Notes: generated by a model from the sequence alone, not told the origin. A stretch of DNA of 64,000 nucleotides from an uncultured Actinomycetes bacterium (GCA_963812845.1 CAWEWQ010000001.1:1724496-1788495), one strand, 5' to 3'. Shown: positions 10,943 through 53,606, numbered from the stretch's first letter. Program-made: numbers and translations.

Positions 10943-11024
10943 GGAGGGGGTGGGACTCCCTCGCCAGACACTCAACATCGAGCCATAGCGAGATGTGTCT
11001 GGGGAGGGAGTCCCCCCCCTCCCC
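10943..11024. repeat. Nested-hairpin intergenic repeat, family 1, copy A
   Basis: G-rich arm 10943-10963, 39-nt core 10964-11002 (ccagacactcaacatcgagccatagcgagatgtgtctgg, itself an 8-bp stem with 23-nt loop), C-rich arm 11003-11024. The core is identical to 21991-22029. The element ends 8 nt from the relA stop. Confidence 0.8.
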
Positions 11025-21969: not shown

Positions 21970-22052
21970 GGAGGGGGCGGGGGACCTCCTCCAGACACTC
22001 AACATCGAGCCATAGCGAGATGTGTCTGGGGGAGGTCCCCCGCCCCCTCCCC
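21970..22052. repeat. Nested-hairpin intergenic repeat, family 1, copy B
   Basis: Arms 21970-21990 and 22030-22052 form 20 Watson-Crick bp continuous with the 8-bp core stem. The core 21991-22029 is identical to copy A. The element ends 2 nt from the yebC stop and lies upstream of ruvC. Confidence 0.85.
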
Positions 22053-23659: not shown

Positions 23660-24769
23660 TCAGACGACGAACTTGCCGTCTTCCTGCATGACGACGCCGT
23701 CGACTTCGAGCTTGCCGCCGAGGCGGAGGTCGCAGACGAGGTCGGTGTGGACCGCGGACTCGTTCTCGCCTCCCGACTCGGGATAGCTGCTGCCGACCGC
23801 CATGTGGACGGTGCCGCCGATCTTCTCGTCGAGCAGGACCTCACGGGTGCCTTTGGTGATCCCGTAGTTGGTGCCGATCCCGAGCTCGCCGAGCGTCCGC
23901 GCCCCCTCGTCGGTGTCGAGCAGTTTCAGCAGGTACTCCTCGCCGCGCTCGGCCGAGGCGTCGACGACCTTGCCGCCCTCGAAACGCAGCCTCACCCCGG
24001 CGACCTCGCGGCCACCGATCACCGCCGGCAGATGGAAGCTGACCTCGCCCTCGACCGAGTCCTCGACCGGGCCGGTGAAGAACTCGCCGTCGGGCATGTT
24101 GTTGTCGCCGACGCAGGGGATGAACCTGCGGCCCGCGATCCCGAGCCGGATGTCGGTCCCCGGCGCGGTCACCCGCACCTCCTCGTGGCCCTCGATCCAG
24201 TCCGCCAGGCGCGTCGTCTCCTCCGAGGCGCGCTTCCAGGCCGTCAGCGGCTCCGGGTCGGCGGCAAGGCAGGCGCCGTAGTAGAAGTCTTCGTAGTCGG
24301 CCAGGCTCATCTCCGCCTCCGAGGCGTAGGCGCTGGTCGGAAAGAGCGTGTAGCACCAGCGGAACTCGCCTTCGGCCGCGCGCTTCATCGCCCTCGTCAT
24401 CAAGCCGCCGGTGGCCGACTGGCGCAGGGTCTGGCGCTCCGGGGCGACGCCTGAGAGCTCGCGGGTGTTGGTGCTGGCGCCGATCGCGATCCGCACGTCG
24501 GCGTTGTCGACCATCCACTCGGCAAACGGGGAGATCCATTCCAGCTGCCGGTCGGAGGCGTGCTTGAAGTAGGAGGCGATCTGTCCCTCCAGCGCCACGT
24601 TCAGCATCGGGTGGCCCCCGGCCTCCAATACCTCCTCATAGACCGCCAGCAGCAGCGGCGCCGCCGCGCTCTCGCCGTCGATCGCGACGACGTCGTCCTC
24701 CTTCACCTCGGTCGAGTAGCCGACCAGGATCTTCGCCAGGTTCTGAATCCGGGGGTCGCCGCCGCTCAT
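23660..24769 (-). CDS. Aminopeptidase, M29 (AmpS/PepS) family
   Basis: MSGGDPRIQNLAKILVGYSTEV..LFPTSAYASEAEMSL..DGEFFTGPVE..GELGIGTNYGI..GGTVHMAVGSSYPESGG. The ATG at 24769 overlaps the pdxT stop (ATGA). Uninterrupted. Confidence 0.85.
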   Translation of the reverse strand: MSGGDPRIQNLAKILVGYSTEVKEDDVVAIDGESAAAPLLLAVYEEVLEAGGHPMLNVALEGQIASYFKHASDRQLEWISPFAEWMVDNADVRIAIGASTNTRELSGVAPERQTLRQSATGGLMTRAMKRAAEGEFRWCYTLFPTSAYASEAEMSLADYEDFYYGACLAADPEPLTAWKRASEETTRLADWIEGHEEVRVTAPGTDIRLGIAGRRFIPCVGDNNMPDGEFFTGPVEDSVEGEVSFHLPAVIGGREVAGVRLRFEGGKVVDASAERGEEYLLKLLDTDEGARTLGELGIGTNYGITKGTREVLLDEKIGGTVHMAVGSSYPESGGENESAVHTDLVCDLRLGGKLEVDGVVMQEDGKFVV

Positions 24770-25356
24770 CGCCTCGCCTCCTCTCCGGCCCGCTCCCGAG
24801 CCGCCGTGGTCATTGCCATGAATATCGCGTGGAAGCGCGGGTCGTCGGTCAGCTCGGGATGAAAGGCGCAGGCGAGCACGCTGCCCTCGCGAATCGCCAC
24901 CGGGTGACCGTCGTAGGAGGCGAGCACCTCCACCTCGGGGCCGCAGCGCTCGACCCACGGGGCGCGGATGAAGACCGCGCGCAGGGTCTCGTCTCCGGCC
25001 CCCTCGACCTCGAGGTCCGCCTCGAAGCTCTGCAGCTGGCGCCCGAAGGCGTTCCGCCGCGCGGTGGCGTCGATGAAGCCGAGATGCTCGGCGTCACAGA
25101 CGATCAGCCCGGCGCAGGTGCCGAGGATCGGTCGGCCGGCCTCGTGGTGGGCGCGCAGTGGAGCCTCGAGGCCGGAGGACTGGATCAGCTTGCCGATCGT
25201 GGTGCTCTCGCCGCCGGGTATCACCAGCGCGTCGAGGCCCTCCATGTCCGCCGGCGTACGGACTTCGCTCGGCTCGGCCCCGAGCTGGCGCAGGGTCGTG
25301 GCGTGGGCTTCGAAGTCCCCCTGCAGCGCGAGTACGCCGACCTTCAGGTCAGCCAC
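24766..25356 (-). CDS. pdxT: Pyridoxal 5'-phosphate synthase glutaminase subunit PdxT
   Basis: Intact 196-aa ORF: KVGVLALQGDFEAH..LVIPGGESTT..PILGTCAGLIV..FIRAPW..CAFHPELTDD. Confidence 0.95.
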   Translation of the reverse strand: MADLKVGVLALQGDFEAHATTLRQLGAEPSEVRTPADMEGLDALVIPGGESTTIGKLIQSSGLEAPLRAHHEAGRPILGTCAGLIVCDAEHLGFIDATARRNAFGRQLQSFEADLEVEGAGDETLRAVFIRAPWVERCGPEVEVLASYDGHPVAIREGSVLACAFHPELTDDPRFHAIFMAMTTAARERAGEEARR

Positions 25357-25392
25357 CGGATGAGCGGTTCCACGGCCGGGTGCGCCTGGGGG

Positions 25393-25486
25393 CGCGCCTG
25401 GCCAAGCAGATCAAGGACGCAGGGCGCAGCCTTTGCTGGTTGCAAAGGCAAGTCCGAGGACGCAGAGATGCGCGGCGCCAGGCGCG
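25393..25486. repeat. Structured intergenic repeat, family 2, copy 1 (between pdxS and pdxT)
   Basis: Outer stem 25393-25402/25477-25486. Conserved block aagcagatcaaggacgcaggg at 25404-25424. Inner hairpin 25429-25436/25442-25449. Conserved block ccgaggacgcagagatgcgc at 25454-25473. The architecture matches 51658-51762. Confidence 0.8.
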
Positions 25487-25519
25487 TCATCCAGGTGTGC
25501 CGGGTCGTGGGACCGCTCA

Positions 25520-26416
25520 TCAAGCTCCGCGGTTCTGCAGCAGGGCGTCCTCGGCGGCGAGCCCGGCGATCTCCAGCCCGGGCATCGCCTCGCCGAGCCC
25601 GATCGAGGCGTCTGCGACCCGCTCGGGGTCGTTGAAGTGGGTGGTCGCCTCGACGATCGCCCGCGCCCGCCGCTCGGGATCGGAGCTCTTGAAGATCCCG
25701 GAGCCGACGAAGTTGCCCTCGGCCCCGAGCTGCATCATCAGCGCGGCATCGGCCGGGGTTGCGATTCCGCCGGCGCAGAACAACGGCACCGGCAGGGAGC
25801 CCGCCTCGGCGACGACTTTCACCACCTCGAGTGGGGCCTGGAGTTCTTTTGCCTCCGAGGAGAGCTCCTCGGGCCCGAGCTGCGCAAGCCGCTTGATCCC
25901 GGAGGTGATCCCACGCATGTGGCGCACCGCCTCGACCACGTTGCCGGTCCCGGCCTCCCCCTTGGAGCGGATCATCGCCGCGCCCTCGCCGATCCGCCGC
26001 AGCGCCTCGCCGAGGTTGGTGGCGCCGCACACAAACGGCACCTCGAAGGCCAGCTTGTCGATGTGGTTGTGCTCGTCCGCCGGAGTCAGGACCTCCGACT
26101 CGTCGATGTAGTCGACTTCCAGGGCCTGCAGGACCTGGGCCTCGGCGAAGTGGCCGATCCGGGCCTTTGCCATCACCGGGATCGAAACCGCCTCCTGGAT
26201 GCCCTTGATCATCGCCGGGTCCGACATGCGGGCGACGCCGCCGTCGCGGCGGATGTCCGCCGGCACCCGCTCCAGCGCCATCACCGCGCAGGCGCCGGCG
26301 TCCTCGGCGATCTTCGCCTCCTCGGGAGTGACCACGTCCATGATCACCCCGCCCTTCAACATCTCCGCAAGGCCGGTCTTCAACCTAAAGGTCGCGCGTT
26401 CAGTCATGGCGTCCAT
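25520..26416 (-). CDS. pdxS: Pyridoxal 5'-phosphate synthase lyase subunit PdxS
   Basis: Intact 298-aa ORF: [65 protein letters not shown]. Confidence 0.95.
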
Positions 26417-49102: not shown

Positions 49103-49798
49103 CTACCCCGGATCAACTCCTAAAACAGAATTTAGCGGCACAGCGCTAACTCCTGCCTCCACCTCTGCGTGGCAGTTCGCGCATAGGAGAGCGCACTTGC
49201 TCGCCTCGGCTCGAAGCTTGGCGATCGAACGGGTGCGGCCGCTGTGGGCAAGCGGGAACTCCTTCGTCTTCGGGTCCAGATGGTGAAACTCGAGAGCCCT
49301 GACGCATCGCGAGTAGCCACAGAGAATGCACGTCCCGCCAGCCTCCTCGACCAGGATGCGCTTTAGGCGATGACGCCGCCGCACAGTGGCCTCTACCCGA
49401 CAGCGCTTACAGCGGTAGTAGCCGCGGCCCTCGCGGACAAAGCTCGTCTCGCCATGGCGCTGACATCGGGAGACCATCTCGCGCGATCCATCCCCCGGAC
49501 CACGCCTGCGCCGGGGGTTGGGCTTCAGCTCGTACTTTCCCATCCAGTGGCGAACCGTCGCCAGACTGCGGTCCAACCGTTGTGCAATCTCCCGCAGCGA
49601 CAGGCCGGCAGCAAGCAACCGCTCCATCTCCTCTTTCGACACCGTCCCCTTTGGCGCATGCTTCTCGGTCTTTACCGCCGAAAGGCCGTACTTCTTCAGC
49701 CAGTAGCTGACCGTCGATTCGTGCTTGCCAGCGCGTTTCCCAATCGCCTCGAGGGACATTCCCTCCGCCAAGCACTCTTCGAGGAACTCCTTTTTCAT
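49103..49798 (-). CDS. HNH endonuclease with two N-terminal helix-turn-helix modules (free-standing, homing-endonuclease-like)
   Basis: Intact 231-aa ORF, lower GC. HTH modules: MSLEAIGKRAGKHESTVSYWLKKYGL and LSLREIAQRLDRSLATVRHWMGKYEL. Zn-ribbon: CQRHG..CKRCR. HNH: CILCGY..ALEFHHLDPKTKEF..KCALLCANCHAEVE. Confidence 0.75.
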   Translation of the reverse strand: MKKEFLEECLAEGMSLEAIGKRAGKHESTVSYWLKKYGLSAVKTEKHAPKGTVSKEEMERLLAAGLSLREIAQRLDRSLATVRHWMGKYELKPNPRRRRGPGDGSREMVSRCQRHGETSFVREGRGYYRCKRCRVEATVRRRHRLKRILVEEAGGTCILCGYSRCVRALEFHHLDPKTKEFPLAHSGRTRSIAKLRAEASKCALLCANCHAEVEAGVSAVPLNSVLGVDPG

Positions 49799-49852
49799 GT
49801 CTGCATCCTTGCAGGTGCTGCGGACAGAACCATTCGCAGACAGAACCCTTAG

Positions 49853-51640
49853 CTAAACGCTGCCCGCCGGCCGCTCGGCGTGGGCGATCCGTTCGACCAG
49901 CGCGGCCCGTTCGCGGCTCAGCGCGGCGCGGCGCTCGTAGTCGCCGCGCTCGCCGGCGGCGGCGATCTCGGCCTCGAGGCGGCGCTGCTCGAGGAGGAGG
50001 AAGTTCAGCTCCATCGCCTCGTGGGAGGCCGGCTCCTCGCGGGACATGATCACCAGTTCGGCGATCAGGCCGGCGAGGGCGGAGTCGTCGTGCGGAAGGT
50101 CGGAGGCAGGATCCTCCGGATGCTCCCGCAGCCAGGCGGCCGCCCGCGAGACCGGTCGGCGAGAGGTGCGCCTCGGTGAGGCGGGCGAGGTACTCCTTGC
50201 CCTCGTCAGGCAGCGCGATGCACATCGCCAGCAGGGCCCGCTCGCGGCGCTCGCGCGAGGTCAGCTCCGCCGCCCGCTGCGGCCGCGAGGGCGCCGGGCG
50301 GCTCGGAGCGGGTGCCTGTTCGGGGCCGCCGCTGGTCGGGGTCGAGGCGACGACCCGCCCCATCACCATCGCCGGCTCGAGGTCGAGCCGCTCGGCGACG
50401 CGGCGGACGAGGTCGTCGCGGCTCGCCGTCTCCCCCAGCCCGGCCAGCACCGGCGCCACCTCGGCCAGCGCCCGGTCGCGCTCGACCGGAGAGCCGGCGT
50501 CGGTGCGCTCGAGAACGAGGCCGACCTGGAAGGCGACCAGCTCCTCGGCGCGATCGAGCAGGCCCTTGAAGCGCTCCGGGCCGCCCTCGGCGGCCATCAT
50601 CTCGGCCGGGTCCTCGCCGGCGGGCATCGCCGCCACCCGCAGCCGCATCCGCCGCCCGGCGGCAACGCTCTGCGCCCGCAGCATCGCCTCCTGGCCGGCC
50701 GAGTCGGCGTCGAGCGCCAGCACGACCTCGTCGACCATCCCCGAGAGCGCCGCCACCTGATCGCCCGTGATCGCCGTCCCCATCACCGCCACCGCCTCCT
50801 CGATCCCGGCCTGGTGCAGCGCCAGGACGTCGGTGTAGCCCTCGACGACGACAGCTCGCCCGGCTTTGGCGATCGCCGCTTTGGCCCGGTCGACGCCGTA
50901 GAGGATCTGGCTCTTGTGGAAGAACTCGGTCTCGGCGGTGTTGACGTACTTGGCACCCTGGTCGGAGCGCATCGCCCGGCCGCCGAAGCCGAGGACGCGG
51001 CCGCGGCGGTCGCGGATCGGGAACATGATCCGCTCGCGGAAGCGGTCGTACTCGCCGCCGCTGCGGCCGCGCTGGACGAGGCCGACGCCGCGCAGCTCCT
51101 CGACGCTGAAGCCGGCCCGCTGTCCGCGGACCAGGAGCTTGTCCCAGGCGCTCGGCGCGTAGCCGACGCCGAAGTCGCGCAGCACCTCTTCGCCCAAGCC
51201 GCGCTCGCGCCAGGTAGTCGCGTGCCTTCCCCGCCTCCTCGGACTCCCAGAGGTAGCTGGAGTAGAAGGCGGCCGCCCGTTCCAGCAGCTCCTCCAGGCG
51301 GCGCCGCCGCTGGCGCTTTCGCCTCCGCCCGCGGGTCCTCCTGCTCGCGCTCGAGCTCGACCCCGTAGCGGTCGGCCAGCAGCTCGACCGCCTCGGCGAA
51401 ATTGAGCCCGTCCTTCTCCTCGATGAACTTGATCACGTCGCCGCCGACCCCACAGCCGAAGCAGTGGTAGAGCTTTTCGGTCGGCTCGACCGAAAACGAG
51501 GGGGTGCGCTCGTCGTGGAACGGGCAGAGGCCGACGTAGCGGGCGCCCTGCCGGCGCAGGTCGGTGTGGGCGGAGACGACCTCGACGATGTCGGCCGCCT
51601 GCTTGACCCGCTCGACGCTGTCGGGGGAGATCAGCGCCAT
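49853..51640 (-). CDS. dnaG: DNA primase DnaG, multiple frameshifts
   Basis: MALISPDSVERVKQAADIVEVV..YVGLCPFHDERTPSFSV..YHCFGCGVGGDVIKF (Zn finger). TOPRIM: ..AVVVEGYTDVLALHQAG..VVLALDADSAGQEA... AGGA lies 7 nt before the ATG at 51640, and a TTG lies at 51646. The C-terminal piece is ORF 49853-50053. Confidence 0.9.
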
Positions 51641-51657
51641 TGACAAATCCTCGCAAC

Positions 51658-51762
51658 CTGAGGGTGCGTGTGACCAAGCAGATCAAGGACGCAGGGAGCG
51701 CTGTGTGCTCTGCACACGAGCGACCGAGGACGCCGATATGCGCCGGTCACACGCACCCTCAG
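51658..51762. repeat. Structured intergenic repeat, family 2, copy 2 (between dgt and dnaG)
   Basis: An 18-bp outer stem 51658-51675/51745-51762 includes the dgt stop codon. Block aagcagatcaaggacgcaggg at 51676-51696. Inner hairpin 51699-51708/51712-51722. Block ccgaggacgccgatatgcgc at 51724-51743. Confidence 0.85.
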
Positions 51763-52802
51763 AACCGGGACTCTTCCGGGACGGTCAGCTCGGTGAACTT
51801 GGCGATGCAGAAGCGATCGGTCATCCCGGCGATGTAGTCGGTGACGCGCTGGCAGTCGCTCGCCGTCGGGTCCCACTCGGGGATCTCGCCGGGGTGCTCG
51901 AGGTAGTGCTCGAAGAGGCCGTGCATGGTCCGCTGCACCCGGTCGTGCTCGCTGCGCGCCTCGGGACCGAGGTAGACGCGGTCGAACATGAACTTGCGCA
52001 GGCGCAGCATCGCCCGTCCGATCTCGCGGCCCTGGCGATCTCGCCGGCGCCTTCGGAGTGCTCGACGATGTCGCGGACGAGCGTGTCGATCCGCTGCGAG
52101 CCGGTCGGACCGAGCAGCTCGATCTCCTCGACGGGCAAGCTCTCCTGGCGGCAGGATCCCGGCCCGCAGGGCGTCGTCGATGTCGTGGTTGATGTAGGCG
52201 ACGCGGTCGACCAGCTTGACGATCTGGCCCTCCAGCGTCGCCGGCCTGCGGGAGCCGGTGTGGTTGAGGATGCCGTCGCGGACCTGCTCGGTCAGGTTCA
52301 GCCCGTGGCCGTCGCGCTCGAGCACGTCGACGACCCGCAGCGAGTGCTCGTTGTGGCGGAAGCCGCTGCCGCATCGCTCCCTCAGCGCCGCGTCGAGGGC
52401 CTCCTCTCCGGCGTGGCCGAAGGGCGGGTGGCCGAGGTCGTGGCCGAGCCCGATCGCCTCGGTCAGGTCCTCGTTCAGGCCCAGCGCCCGGGCGACCGTG
52501 CGGGCGATCCCGCAGGCCTCGAGCGTGTGGGTCAGACGGGTCCGGTAGTGGTCGCCCTCAGGGGCGACGAAGACCTGGGTCTTGTGCTTCAGCCGCCGGA
52601 ACGACTTCGAGTGGACGATCCGGTCGCGGTCGCGCTGGAACGGCGTCCGCAACGGGCTGTCCGGCTCCTCCTGCTGCCGCCGCGCCGGATAGGACCGAGT
52701 CGCCTCCGGAGAGAGAAACTCCTCCTCCAAAGCGGAGATGCGCTCCTCGAAGGTGGCAGTGACGGGCACCAGTCGATCATAAGGCGGTCGCCGCACAACC
52801 AT
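51759..52802 (-). CDS. dgt: dGTP triphosphohydrolase-like HD-domain protein, frameshifts near 52000-52130
   Basis: ..[83 protein letters not shown]... ATG at 52802. Confidence 0.85.
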
Positions 52803-52812
52803 CCCCTCTTGC

Positions 52813-52879
52813 GGGGCGAGGGGGAGGGGTTCGCCGGACCCTCCCCGCTGTTGTCCGCCGAACCCCTCCCCCTCGCCCC
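52813..52879 (-). terminator. Perfect 21-bp G/C-rich hairpin 3 nt after the recO stop
   Basis: ggggcgagggggaggggttcg (52813-52833) pairs with cgaacccctccccctcgcccc (52859-52879) around a 25-nt loop. The G-rich arm style resembles repeat family 1. No U-tract is present. Confidence 0.4.
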
Positions 52880-52882
52880 CGA

Positions 52883-53606
52883 TCAAGCCGCAGCGCGCAG
52901 TTGTACGTGCGCGTGGTGCTCGAGCGTCTCGCCGACCGCCCGCTCGACCTGACGCAGGGCGCGAGGCTCGGCTCCGGGCGCCTCGCTCAGCGGCTGCGCC
53001 AGCGCCTCGACCATGAAGTCGTGCGCTTCCTCGTCGAGTGGGAAGGAGCCCGCTTCGCAGCCGGCGCAGACGACGCCGCCGGCGGCGCCGGAGAAGCCGA
53101 CCAGGTGCTCGGCCTCGCCGCAGCGGGCGCAGGAGGCGAGCTCGGGAGCGAAACCGGCGACCAGCGCCAGCTTCAGCCGGAAGGAGAGGGCCGTCTCGAT
53201 GCCCGCCGCCGCGGCTCGCCTGGGTCGTCGAGCAGGGAGAGGTAGCGGCAGAGGAGGTTGTAGGCGGGCGGGATTGGGCTCGGCCGAGTCGAGCAGGCGC
53301 AGGACCGCGTCGCAGGCGCGGGCGCCGGCGGTCAGCGCCGGCCCGGAGGAGCGCAGGCGCGGGTAGCCGTCGACGGTCGTGACGCTGGTCACCGTCATCA
53401 GGTCGCCGCGGCCTTCGTGGAGGATCAGGTCGAGCCGGAAGAACGGCTCCAGGCGGCCGCCGAAGCGGGATCGGTTTGCGCGCCCCCTTGGCGATCGCCC
53501 CGAACCGGCCGCGGCTCTTCGAGTAGAGGTGGAGGATGCGGTCGGCCTCGCCGTAGCGAATGCTGCGCAGGACAATCGCCTCCGTCTTGACCGTAGTTCC
53601 GGCCAC
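52883..53606 (-). CDS. recO: DNA repair protein RecO, frameshifted
   Basis: GTG at 53606: [44 protein letters not shown].. then (ORF 52883-53575) ..[39 protein letters not shown]... Confidence 0.85.

Follow-up and report, generated by a model that had tools for sequence, protein, structure and literature searches.

The region analysed here, referred to as the window, is a 64,000-nucleotide stretch of DNA from an uncultured Actinomycetes bacterium (GCA_963812845.1 CAWEWQ010000001.1:1724496-1788495). Two minus-strand gene pairs within it, pdxS-pdxT and dgt-dnaG, are each separated by one copy of a repeat that folds into a long hairpin, and the strand of the repeat that carries CAAGGACGCAGGG is called the motif strand. 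The genes, whose original labels proved right by Pfam, and the parts of the two copies are as follows.

24766-25356, minus strand: pdxT (Pfam SNO, 5e-49)
25520-26416, minus strand: pdxS (Pfam SOR_SNZ, 1.9e-104)
25359-25521, motif strand plus: copy 1, long form, a 163-nt rod-like hairpin GATGAGCGG...CCGCTCATC (from its fold; covariance model, 64.7 bits)
25404-25473, plus strand: apical module of copy 1
25406-25412 and 25465-25471, plus strand: P2 helix of copy 1, GCAGATC pairing with GAGATGC
25414-25420 and 25457-25463, plus strand: the mutually facing AGGACGC repeats of copy 1
25429-25449, plus strand: P3 hairpin of copy 1, gcctttgc/gcaaaggc
49407-51640, minus strand: dnaG (Pfam; ATG at 51640-51638)
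51641-51657, minus strand: tail of 17-18 nt leading from copy 2 to the dnaG ATG
51658-51762, motif strand plus: copy 2, short form, a 105-nt rod CTGAGGGTGCGTGTGACC...GGTCACACGCACCCTCAG (covariance model, 90.8 bits)
51658-51675 and 51745-51762: outer stem of copy 2, 18 bp, perfect
51676-51743, plus strand: apical module of copy 2, with block 1 at 51676-51696 and block 2 at 51724-51743
51686-51692 and 51727-51733, plus strand: AGGACGC repeats of copy 2
51703-51717, plus strand: P3 hairpin of copy 2, gtgtgc/gcacac
51759-52886, minus strand: dgt, 375 aa in the source-collection annotation (P0121; Pfam HD and HD_assoc)

Copy 1 occupies the entire gap between pdxS and pdxT, from the pdxS stop codon to 2 nt short of the pdxT GTG. 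The stop codon itself (TGA, 25520-25522) is made of the final two bases of the element and one flanking base, and the pdxT start lies 2 nt from the rod end opposite this stop. At the other site, the dgt stop codon (TGA, 51759-51761) falls within the base of the copy 2 rod, inside the outer stem as had been predicted, and the tail that leads to dnaG carries a Shine-Dalgarno-like GAGGA at 51648-51652 (plus-strand numbering). The motif strand is antisense to pdxS and pdxT at copy 1 and to dgt and dnaG at copy 2. The dnaG frame was found to break after the Zn-ribbon and before the catalytic core, with the Zn-ribbon in a different frame from DNAG_N/Toprim (51200-51640), and recO (52883-53606) was likewise divided, its N-terminal part being read in one frame and its C-terminal part in another. 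With two housekeeping genes disrupted inside a 3-kb stretch, assembly indel errors are suggested rather than pseudogenes, and arguments that depend on single bases at the junctions are soft because the window assembly has these frameshifts. Between recO and dgt there is a further hairpin with 27-bp arms (52813-52879), and dgt is 375 aa long in the window annotation versus 336 aa in relatives, in which the recO-dgt gap is 10 nt. This hairpin is probably another palindromic insertion that is read through as an open reading frame (ORF) and lengthens the dgt call.

The original prediction described a repeat family in which conserved unpaired blocks are combined with stems that change in sequence and keep their pairing. 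Within the window, the 21-nt block AAGCAGATCAAGGACGCAGGG was exactly repeated at 25404-25424 and 51676-51696, and no third match was present at up to 3 mismatches, with 0.02 expected by chance. The inner hairpins and the AGGACGC direct repeat were likewise found where they had been placed. A second block (25454-25473 and 51724-51743) was identical at 18 of 20 positions, as described; taken alone it was not significant, with at least two matches in 8 of 100 shuffles, but it lay in register with the first block. The fold z-scores ranged from -4.2 to -7.5, a signal far above chance. The account of the outer stems was correct for the 18-bp perfect stem of copy 2 and had to be extended for copy 1, in which the 10 bp that were noticed are the inner part of the 163-nt rod, whose fold has about 49-56 enclosing pairs.

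The existence of the family depended on there being copies beyond these two. When 185,579 species genomes were scanned for exact matches to the pattern CAAGGACGCAGGG-N10-40-GAGGACGC, at least 127 exact copies were recovered in at least 120 loci, all of them intergenic, and relaxed patterns and the covariance model added a few further copies, with 1-3 mismatches or degenerate. Away from the copy that defined each locus, the density was about 1 per 55-60 kb, which amounts to tens of copies per genome. Among the matches listed, all were from Gaiellaceae, Solirubrobacterales, Thermoleophilaceae or unclassified Actinomycetes metagenome-assembled genomes (Thermoleophilia). For the Thermoleophilia, a class of soil Actinomycetota that is abundant and has barely been cultured, we know of no described repeat family. 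The gene neighbourhood was different for almost every listed copy, and the neighbours that we spot-checked were housekeeping genes. Although the search pattern itself forces the 21 core bases to be invariant, with about half of the copies that were found independently of it having 1-3 core mismatches, positions outside the pattern were also at least 90% conserved: A41, G42, the CGAC preceding the second repeat, and G86.

The original prediction did not recognize the element as a named motif, and our searches agree with this. Rfam gave no match at gathering score anywhere in the window and, at E values up to 10, nothing relevant for either copy, only generic miRNA-hairpin models; full-text literature searches yielded no description of the element. 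The family is apparently undescribed so far. A search for RNA-seq data of this genome returned soil metagenome DNA runs only. The core pattern was present in only 2 of 2.9 million viral contigs (L131 and L132; IMG/VR), which may be prophage-like Thermoleophilia regions or misclassified chromosomal DNA, and on this count a phage or plasmid vector is unlikely. A contig labelled Acidobacteriota that contains a copy (L010, JBDTXY010000426.1) is syntenic with the Gaiellaceae-type loci L030, L114 and L120, with flanks at 76-90% protein identity, and is probably misbinned. The stretch L048:3529-3730 contains a tandem pair of copies spaced 100 nt apart, of which the downstream one has a perfect rod and the upstream one a decayed right arm.

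Every copy is a rod-like imperfect palindrome whose arms vary between copies yet stay complementary, and the rods form two sharp size classes of 101-110 nt and 162-168 nt. Moving inward, the variable arms are followed by a small internal loop of the AA/CC type, the 7-bp P2 helix with a purine mismatch, a bubble of the 13x13 type that has CAAGGACGCAGGGA on its 5' strand and GACYGAGGACGC on its 3' strand, and finally P3, a variable hairpin of 6-12 bp. The conserved apex is non-palindromic, with one AGGACGC of the direct repeat on each strand of the bubble. As the two repeats each read 5' to 3', a two-fold axis relates them, and judging from the sequence this arrangement resembles the binding site of a dimer. 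Subfamilies with similar arms were found, such as GGCTGGCGAGCGCCGGACC..., TGGCGGAAT... and CGAAAACC...GGTTTGCAGC; the arms were not conserved across the whole family, and outside the subfamilies the end sequences differed between copies. One copy (L038:6289-6416) has about 25 nt of extra sequence within the apical hairpin, which indicates that the apex tolerates expansion at P3. Two likenesses of the apical words were rejected. A resemblance of AAGCAG..CAAGG to domain IV of SRP RNA was confined to short words on the wrong helix strand with no Rfam SRP match, and AAGGA/GAGGA could not be taken as a Shine-Dalgarno-like or CsrA-like site, since a co-oriented gene rarely follows.

Pairing across the family was measured over a 33-pair structure in a sequence-only MAFFT alignment of 120 copies. 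Paired cells made up 68.7% of the total compared to 53.1% in shuffles, and the covariation score was 0.407 versus 0.174 +/- 0.006 in shuffles (0/500), with slid controls at 0.10-0.20. The P2 helix (alignment columns 22-28/86-94) was 85% paired, and GC, CG, AU and UA were all frequent in it. Stems that preserve pairing were a main part of what had been predicted, and this part is upheld. Copies at orthologous sites were then compared pair by pair. At one site shared by four genomes (site A; flanks at 76-90% protein identity), 18 of 57 pairs were compensated. Between the window and L096, the dgt-dnaG copies had 33 pairs, of which 5 were compensated, 1 underwent a wobble change and none was broken; the corresponding figures for the 56 pairs of the pdxS-pdxT copies in the window and L123 were 1, 3 and none. 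These results demonstrate that rod pairing has been preserved after insertion by compensated changes. The pairing must be upheld by selection or by templated correction of one arm from the other (quasi-palindrome template switching), and compensated changes in DNA palindromes can arise without selection too, through such switching. A pair of orthologous copies at L029:2323-2424 and L039:5390-5491 illustrates the latter: the left arm in L029 repeats exactly, in inverted orientation, the final 5 codons and the stop of the gene next to it, which is not so in L039. From these sequences, the L029 arm looks like palindrome extension by template switching, so that some switching is favoured.

The two strands of the element were not equivalent. 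In the arms, read on the motif strand, 427 G.T pairs were counted versus 111 A.C pairs, and the G.T excess was on the motif strand in 86 copies and on the opposite strand in 13, with the same direction in every gene context. The G-Y pair that closes the bubble was GC in 85 copies and GU in 35, and nothing else. When the long forms were folded as RNA, the motif strand reached -114 kcal/mol versus -93.5 kcal/mol for the other strand, and 85 of 88 copies favoured the motif strand. Because both wobble and fold stability favour that strand, a single-stranded form of it appears to matter to the element, although wobble pairs cannot distinguish RNA from DNA.

We investigated the same junctions in close Solirubrobacterales relatives, which were identified by pdxT homologues about 89-93% identical. 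The pdxS-pdxT junction was empty in L121, L122, L125, L126, L127 and one further record; with the element absent, the pdxS end reads ...GGAGCG TAG and the pdxT GTG begins on the next base, leaving the TAG|GTG junction intact. Among the relatives compared, only the window and L123/L124 carried the 163-nt element at this place. The dgt-dnaG junction was empty in L128-L130, relatives about 80-82% identical, which have an overlapping TGATG or TAGATG junction there, and it was filled in the window and, by an orthologous copy, in L096. A tail homologous to the one after copy 2 was found in L096 and was missing at the empty sites, as judged by sequence comparison. Two more polymorphic sites were detected within the same 20-kb neighbourhood: a long form downstream of ruvB, present only in L122, and a degenerate short form between an M29 peptidase gene and a convergent gene, present only in L123. 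These results demonstrate that both window copies are insertions separating gene pairs that are joined in relatives about 80-90% protein-identical, in agreement with the original proposal that the element splits normally contiguous pairs. The copies can serve as markers for strain typing and for detecting misbinned contigs, and the family accounts for odd long spacers and for some over-long ORF calls in Thermoleophilia genomes.

The targets at the four filled/empty sites were GTAG, CTGA, CTAG and CTGA, each with a stop codon in it, and the four junctions disagreed with respect to a target-site duplication. The left junction of the L122 insertion was a canonical C-TA-G and its opposite side was short by 4 nt; the pdxS junction fitted an insertion that split T|A and duplicated nothing, together with one substitution; in the short forms, 4 bp of the rod were common to the TCAG of the target. 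Of the long copies, 10 of 39 had TA at both predicted ends, where the background is 7% per end. Long-form ends often read TA|G...C|TA, and short-form ends read CTGA...TCAG or CTAG...CTAG, so that stop codons are built into both ends on both strands, and an interrupted or abutting ORF still terminates because of them. Measured from the core, the 3'-side gene had its stop codon at 23-26 nt in short forms or at 55-58 nt in long forms in about 70% of cases, which places this codon exactly at the element end, and TAG was over-represented among abutting stops (22 of 58). Since TA is rare elsewhere in a 70% GC genome, a TA-targeting element would land in stop codons almost by default.

[quoted passage not shown] The terminal inverted repeats common to a MITE family were not found, as each copy is self-complementary to its own ends. 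The ends could nonetheless be read as those of a classical MITE moved by double-strand cut and paste by a TA-targeting DDE transposon of the IS630/Tc1-like kind, with the hairpin a by-product of long inverted repeats, its pairing kept by template switching during replication, and the apex a host-factor site comparable to that for IHF in Correia elements. TA enrichment at the long-form ends, the excess of TAG among abutting stops and the canonical left junction in L122 agree with such an origin, some rods reach into flanking coding sequence, the L029 arm fits template switching, and RUP with IS630 provides a precedent (PMC2229807). A DDE transposase, however, needs conserved termini, and the ends of this element are not conserved between copies; the short forms terminate in CTGA...TCAG rather than TA; a 4:1 ratio of G.T over A.C and a strand asymmetry of 20 kcal/mol would be unexpected if the element were handled as a duplex only; and no related insertion sequence (IS) was seen in the loci spot-checked. 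We regard a classical DDE-mobilized MITE as unlikely.

Orientation relative to genes was determined with a codon-position GC caller that was validated on the window genes. The gene 3' of the motif strand was on the opposite strand in 87 of 103 cases and co-oriented in 16. In the 47 co-directional contexts, the motif strand was antisense in 39 and sense in 8, and 31 copies were between convergent genes versus 5 between divergent genes. The gene on the 5' side, by comparison, was oriented 50/50 at every distance, and there was no relation between GC skew and the orientation of the element (orientation-independent term, -0.0017 +/- 0.0018). These two results rule out replication polarity as the source of the bias and indicate that it concerns transcription instead.

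Such a bias is what would be expected if the host had domesticated the element, either as a polar terminator or insulator acting on the motif strand, by which antisense or convergent transcription would be stopped strongly and sense transcription let through, or as a place of RNase III-type processing by which the relative amounts of the upstream and downstream cistrons would be fixed. One strand does fold far more strongly, and that strand is antisense in operons by 39:8, with 31 convergent versus 5 divergent placements; rods have been kept at orthologous sites despite flanks that are only 76-90% protein-identical, and ERIC elements have orientation-dependent effects on mRNA stability (PMC2229807). 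We nevertheless judge a domesticated module to be improbable. Presence and absence differ among close relatives at essential, tightly coupled junctions, a terminator role leaves the conserved asymmetric apex unexplained, and there is no U-tract.

The original prediction offered a structured RNA or a protein-bound DNA element that could modulate coupling of the downstream gene. Read as a structured RNA regulating these operons, the element would be, for example, a riboswitch, an attenuator or a protein-binding leader that acts in cis on the downstream gene of each pair. Conserved unpaired blocks with covarying stems speak for such a reading, as do the location between cistrons and, at copy 1, a rod base that buries the pdxT start. 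Covariation and conserved loops are not in themselves enough to make a regulatory RNA, however, since both are also features of mobile palindromes. In the two window copies, and in most operon settings (39 of the 47 that are co-directional), it is the antisense strand that folds well; a co-oriented gene follows on the 3' side in just 16 of 103 cases; the genes beside the element bear no relation to one another across loci; close relatives lack the element at these junctions, where it is an insertion; and Rfam contains no match. This part of the prediction was not sustained, and we consider a cis-regulatory RNA highly improbable.

Taken together, the above-described results lead us to conclude that the copies are probably non-coding, MITE/REPIN-like, non-autonomous mobile hairpins of Thermoleophilia that are moved in trans via the apex of a folded strand. 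They depart from a textbook MITE in three respects: conservation lies in the apex and not in the ends, good folding is limited to a single strand, and the ends are on stop codons. The original prediction had considered that the conserved blocks might be the end of a known mobile element; the element does appear to be mobile, but it is none of those known, and the blocks lie at its apex instead of its ends. A putative trans-acting enzyme, encoded elsewhere and probably a dimer, would move the element by reading the symmetric apical bubble on the folded single strand that carries CAAGGACGCAGGG. Recognition of the folded motif strand is proposed because wobble and fold stability favour it in every gene context. 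The orientation bias in operons can be explained by purifying selection against mRNAs that contain the strongly folding strand, which would probably act as a terminator or roadblock, and between co-directional genes the element would be tolerated only if the weaker-folding strand enters the mRNA. Such selection leaves the wobble asymmetry unexplained, and it is for this reason that a single-stranded intermediate is proposed. More tentatively, a dimeric enzyme might recognize the AGGACGC/AGGACGC bubble, cut and join about 25 or 56 nt down the rod and insert the element at stop codons in a fixed orientation, by a logic like that of REPIN/RAYT systems with unrelated parts, persisting across the class; we offer this detailed scheme as possible rather than as expected. 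Among the genes between paired copies that we spot-checked, no transposase or partner gene was found; these genes were jag, rsmG, yidC, rnpA, tlyA, NAD kinase and rhamnose-synthesis genes. About 1.2 Mb of loci were spot-checked for a parent insertion sequence having the ends of the element, and none was seen. A conserved apex with free ends points to a mechanism of transposition or recognition unlike that of textbook MITEs, and a search for a co-inherited enzyme could reveal it. The family is new, though of the MITE/REPIN kind, and it would be of greater interest if recognition of an apical bubble were to prove a new transposition mechanism.

The insertions may also affect the genes into whose junctions they fell. 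The coupled stop/start pairs of pdxS/pdxT and dgt/dnaG would now be held apart by the rods. At copy 1, the base of the rod is predicted to bring the pdxS stop and the pdxT start together again, and ribosomes finishing pdxS would melt the rod base and expose the pdxT GTG; in this model, pdxT initiation probably still depends on such melting. At copy 2, dnaG may have gained a new Shine-Dalgarno sequence in the short tail after the element. From the layout of the two junctions, a side effect on the coupling of pdxT and dnaG is plausible. Because the same translationally coupled junction occurs with and without a hairpin of 105-163 nt, these genomes provide a natural experiment.

In kind, the element appears closest to ERIC, Correia, RUP and REPIN repeats, and attC sites and MIRUs seem partial analogies; none of these six shares its sequence or its apex-centred design. 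The attC sites of integrons are imperfect palindromes directly downstream of ORFs, are conserved more in structure than in sequence, and are read as a folded single strand that is antisense to the cassette ORF. The Thermoleophilia element is likewise an imperfect palindrome directly downstream of an ORF, but its ends have no R''/R' core sites (RYYYAAC/GTTRRRY), there are no cassette arrays and no nearby intI, and its contexts are housekeeping operons. The MIRUs of Mycobacterium tuberculosis, reportedly described by Supply et al. in 1997, are said to lie between the stop and start codons of operons in one orientation. MIRUs are tandem direct repeats with small overlapping ORFs and not hairpins, so that the likeness extends to an actinobacterial intercistronic repeat between stop and start and not to the hairpin.

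REP and REPIN sequences are handled as folded single strands, and REPIN/RAYT systems are known mainly from Proteobacteria. A REPIN consists of two conserved inverted REPs, with a 5' GTAG, around a variable spacer; in the Thermoleophilia element, by contrast, the conserved blocks are apical direct repeats and it is the outer arms that vary. No RAYT gene was seen among the genes between paired copies that we spot-checked, which were housekeeping genes. Two reports on REPINs describe them as non-autonomous hairpin repeats with long vertical persistence that depend on a single-copy enzyme elsewhere in the genome (PMC3337134, bioRxiv 2022.05.22.493013).

The ERIC elements are similar in being imperfect palindromes with many copies, filled and empty sites, and effects of orientation. 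The centre of ERIC, according to what Hulton et al. are said to have found in 1991, is its best-conserved part, which is a further likeness. ERIC/IRU sequences are imperfect palindromes of about 127 bp in transcribed intergenic regions, with tens to hundreds of copies across related genera, and filled and empty sites between relatives, an orientation-dependent effect on mRNA and no known mobilizing enzyme have been described for them (PMC2229807). The Thermoleophilia element has no sequence similarity to ERIC, its composition is GC-rich and, among the matches listed, it is confined to Thermoleophilia; the repeats at its asymmetric apex are direct and face each other instead of being inverted, its arms vary far more, and its pairing has a marked strand asymmetry. 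Correia/NEMIS elements of Neisseria have two sizes of about 107 and 155 bp, TA termini and long stem-loop transcripts, and their long form contains an internal IHF-binding motif and stops in all frames (PMC2229807). The Thermoleophilia element also has two size classes, and TA is enriched at the ends of its long forms. In Correia elements, however, the 24-bp terminal inverted repeat is conserved and the centre variable, the reverse of what we found, and the extra length of the Thermoleophilia long form is in the arms and not in an internal segment, with no IHF-like site recognized. RUP of Streptococcus pneumoniae is a 107-bp intergenic MITE that depends on IS630-Spn1 and inserts at TA (PMC2229807). 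Unlike the Thermoleophilia element, for which no such IS was seen in the spot-checked loci and no conserved ends were found, RUP has conserved ends that match the resident IS630, and RUP is AT-rich.

A second, unrelated palindromic repeat family was observed in the same genomes, at 10947-11019 and 21970-22050 in the window, at L123:13010-13145 and at L125:13271-13391. It has arms of the GGAGGGG... type and the shared words CCAGACAC...GTGTCTGG. This family occupies the yebC-ruvC spacer in L123 and L125 and is absent from it in L121, L122 and L127, so that it is likewise insertion-polymorphic.
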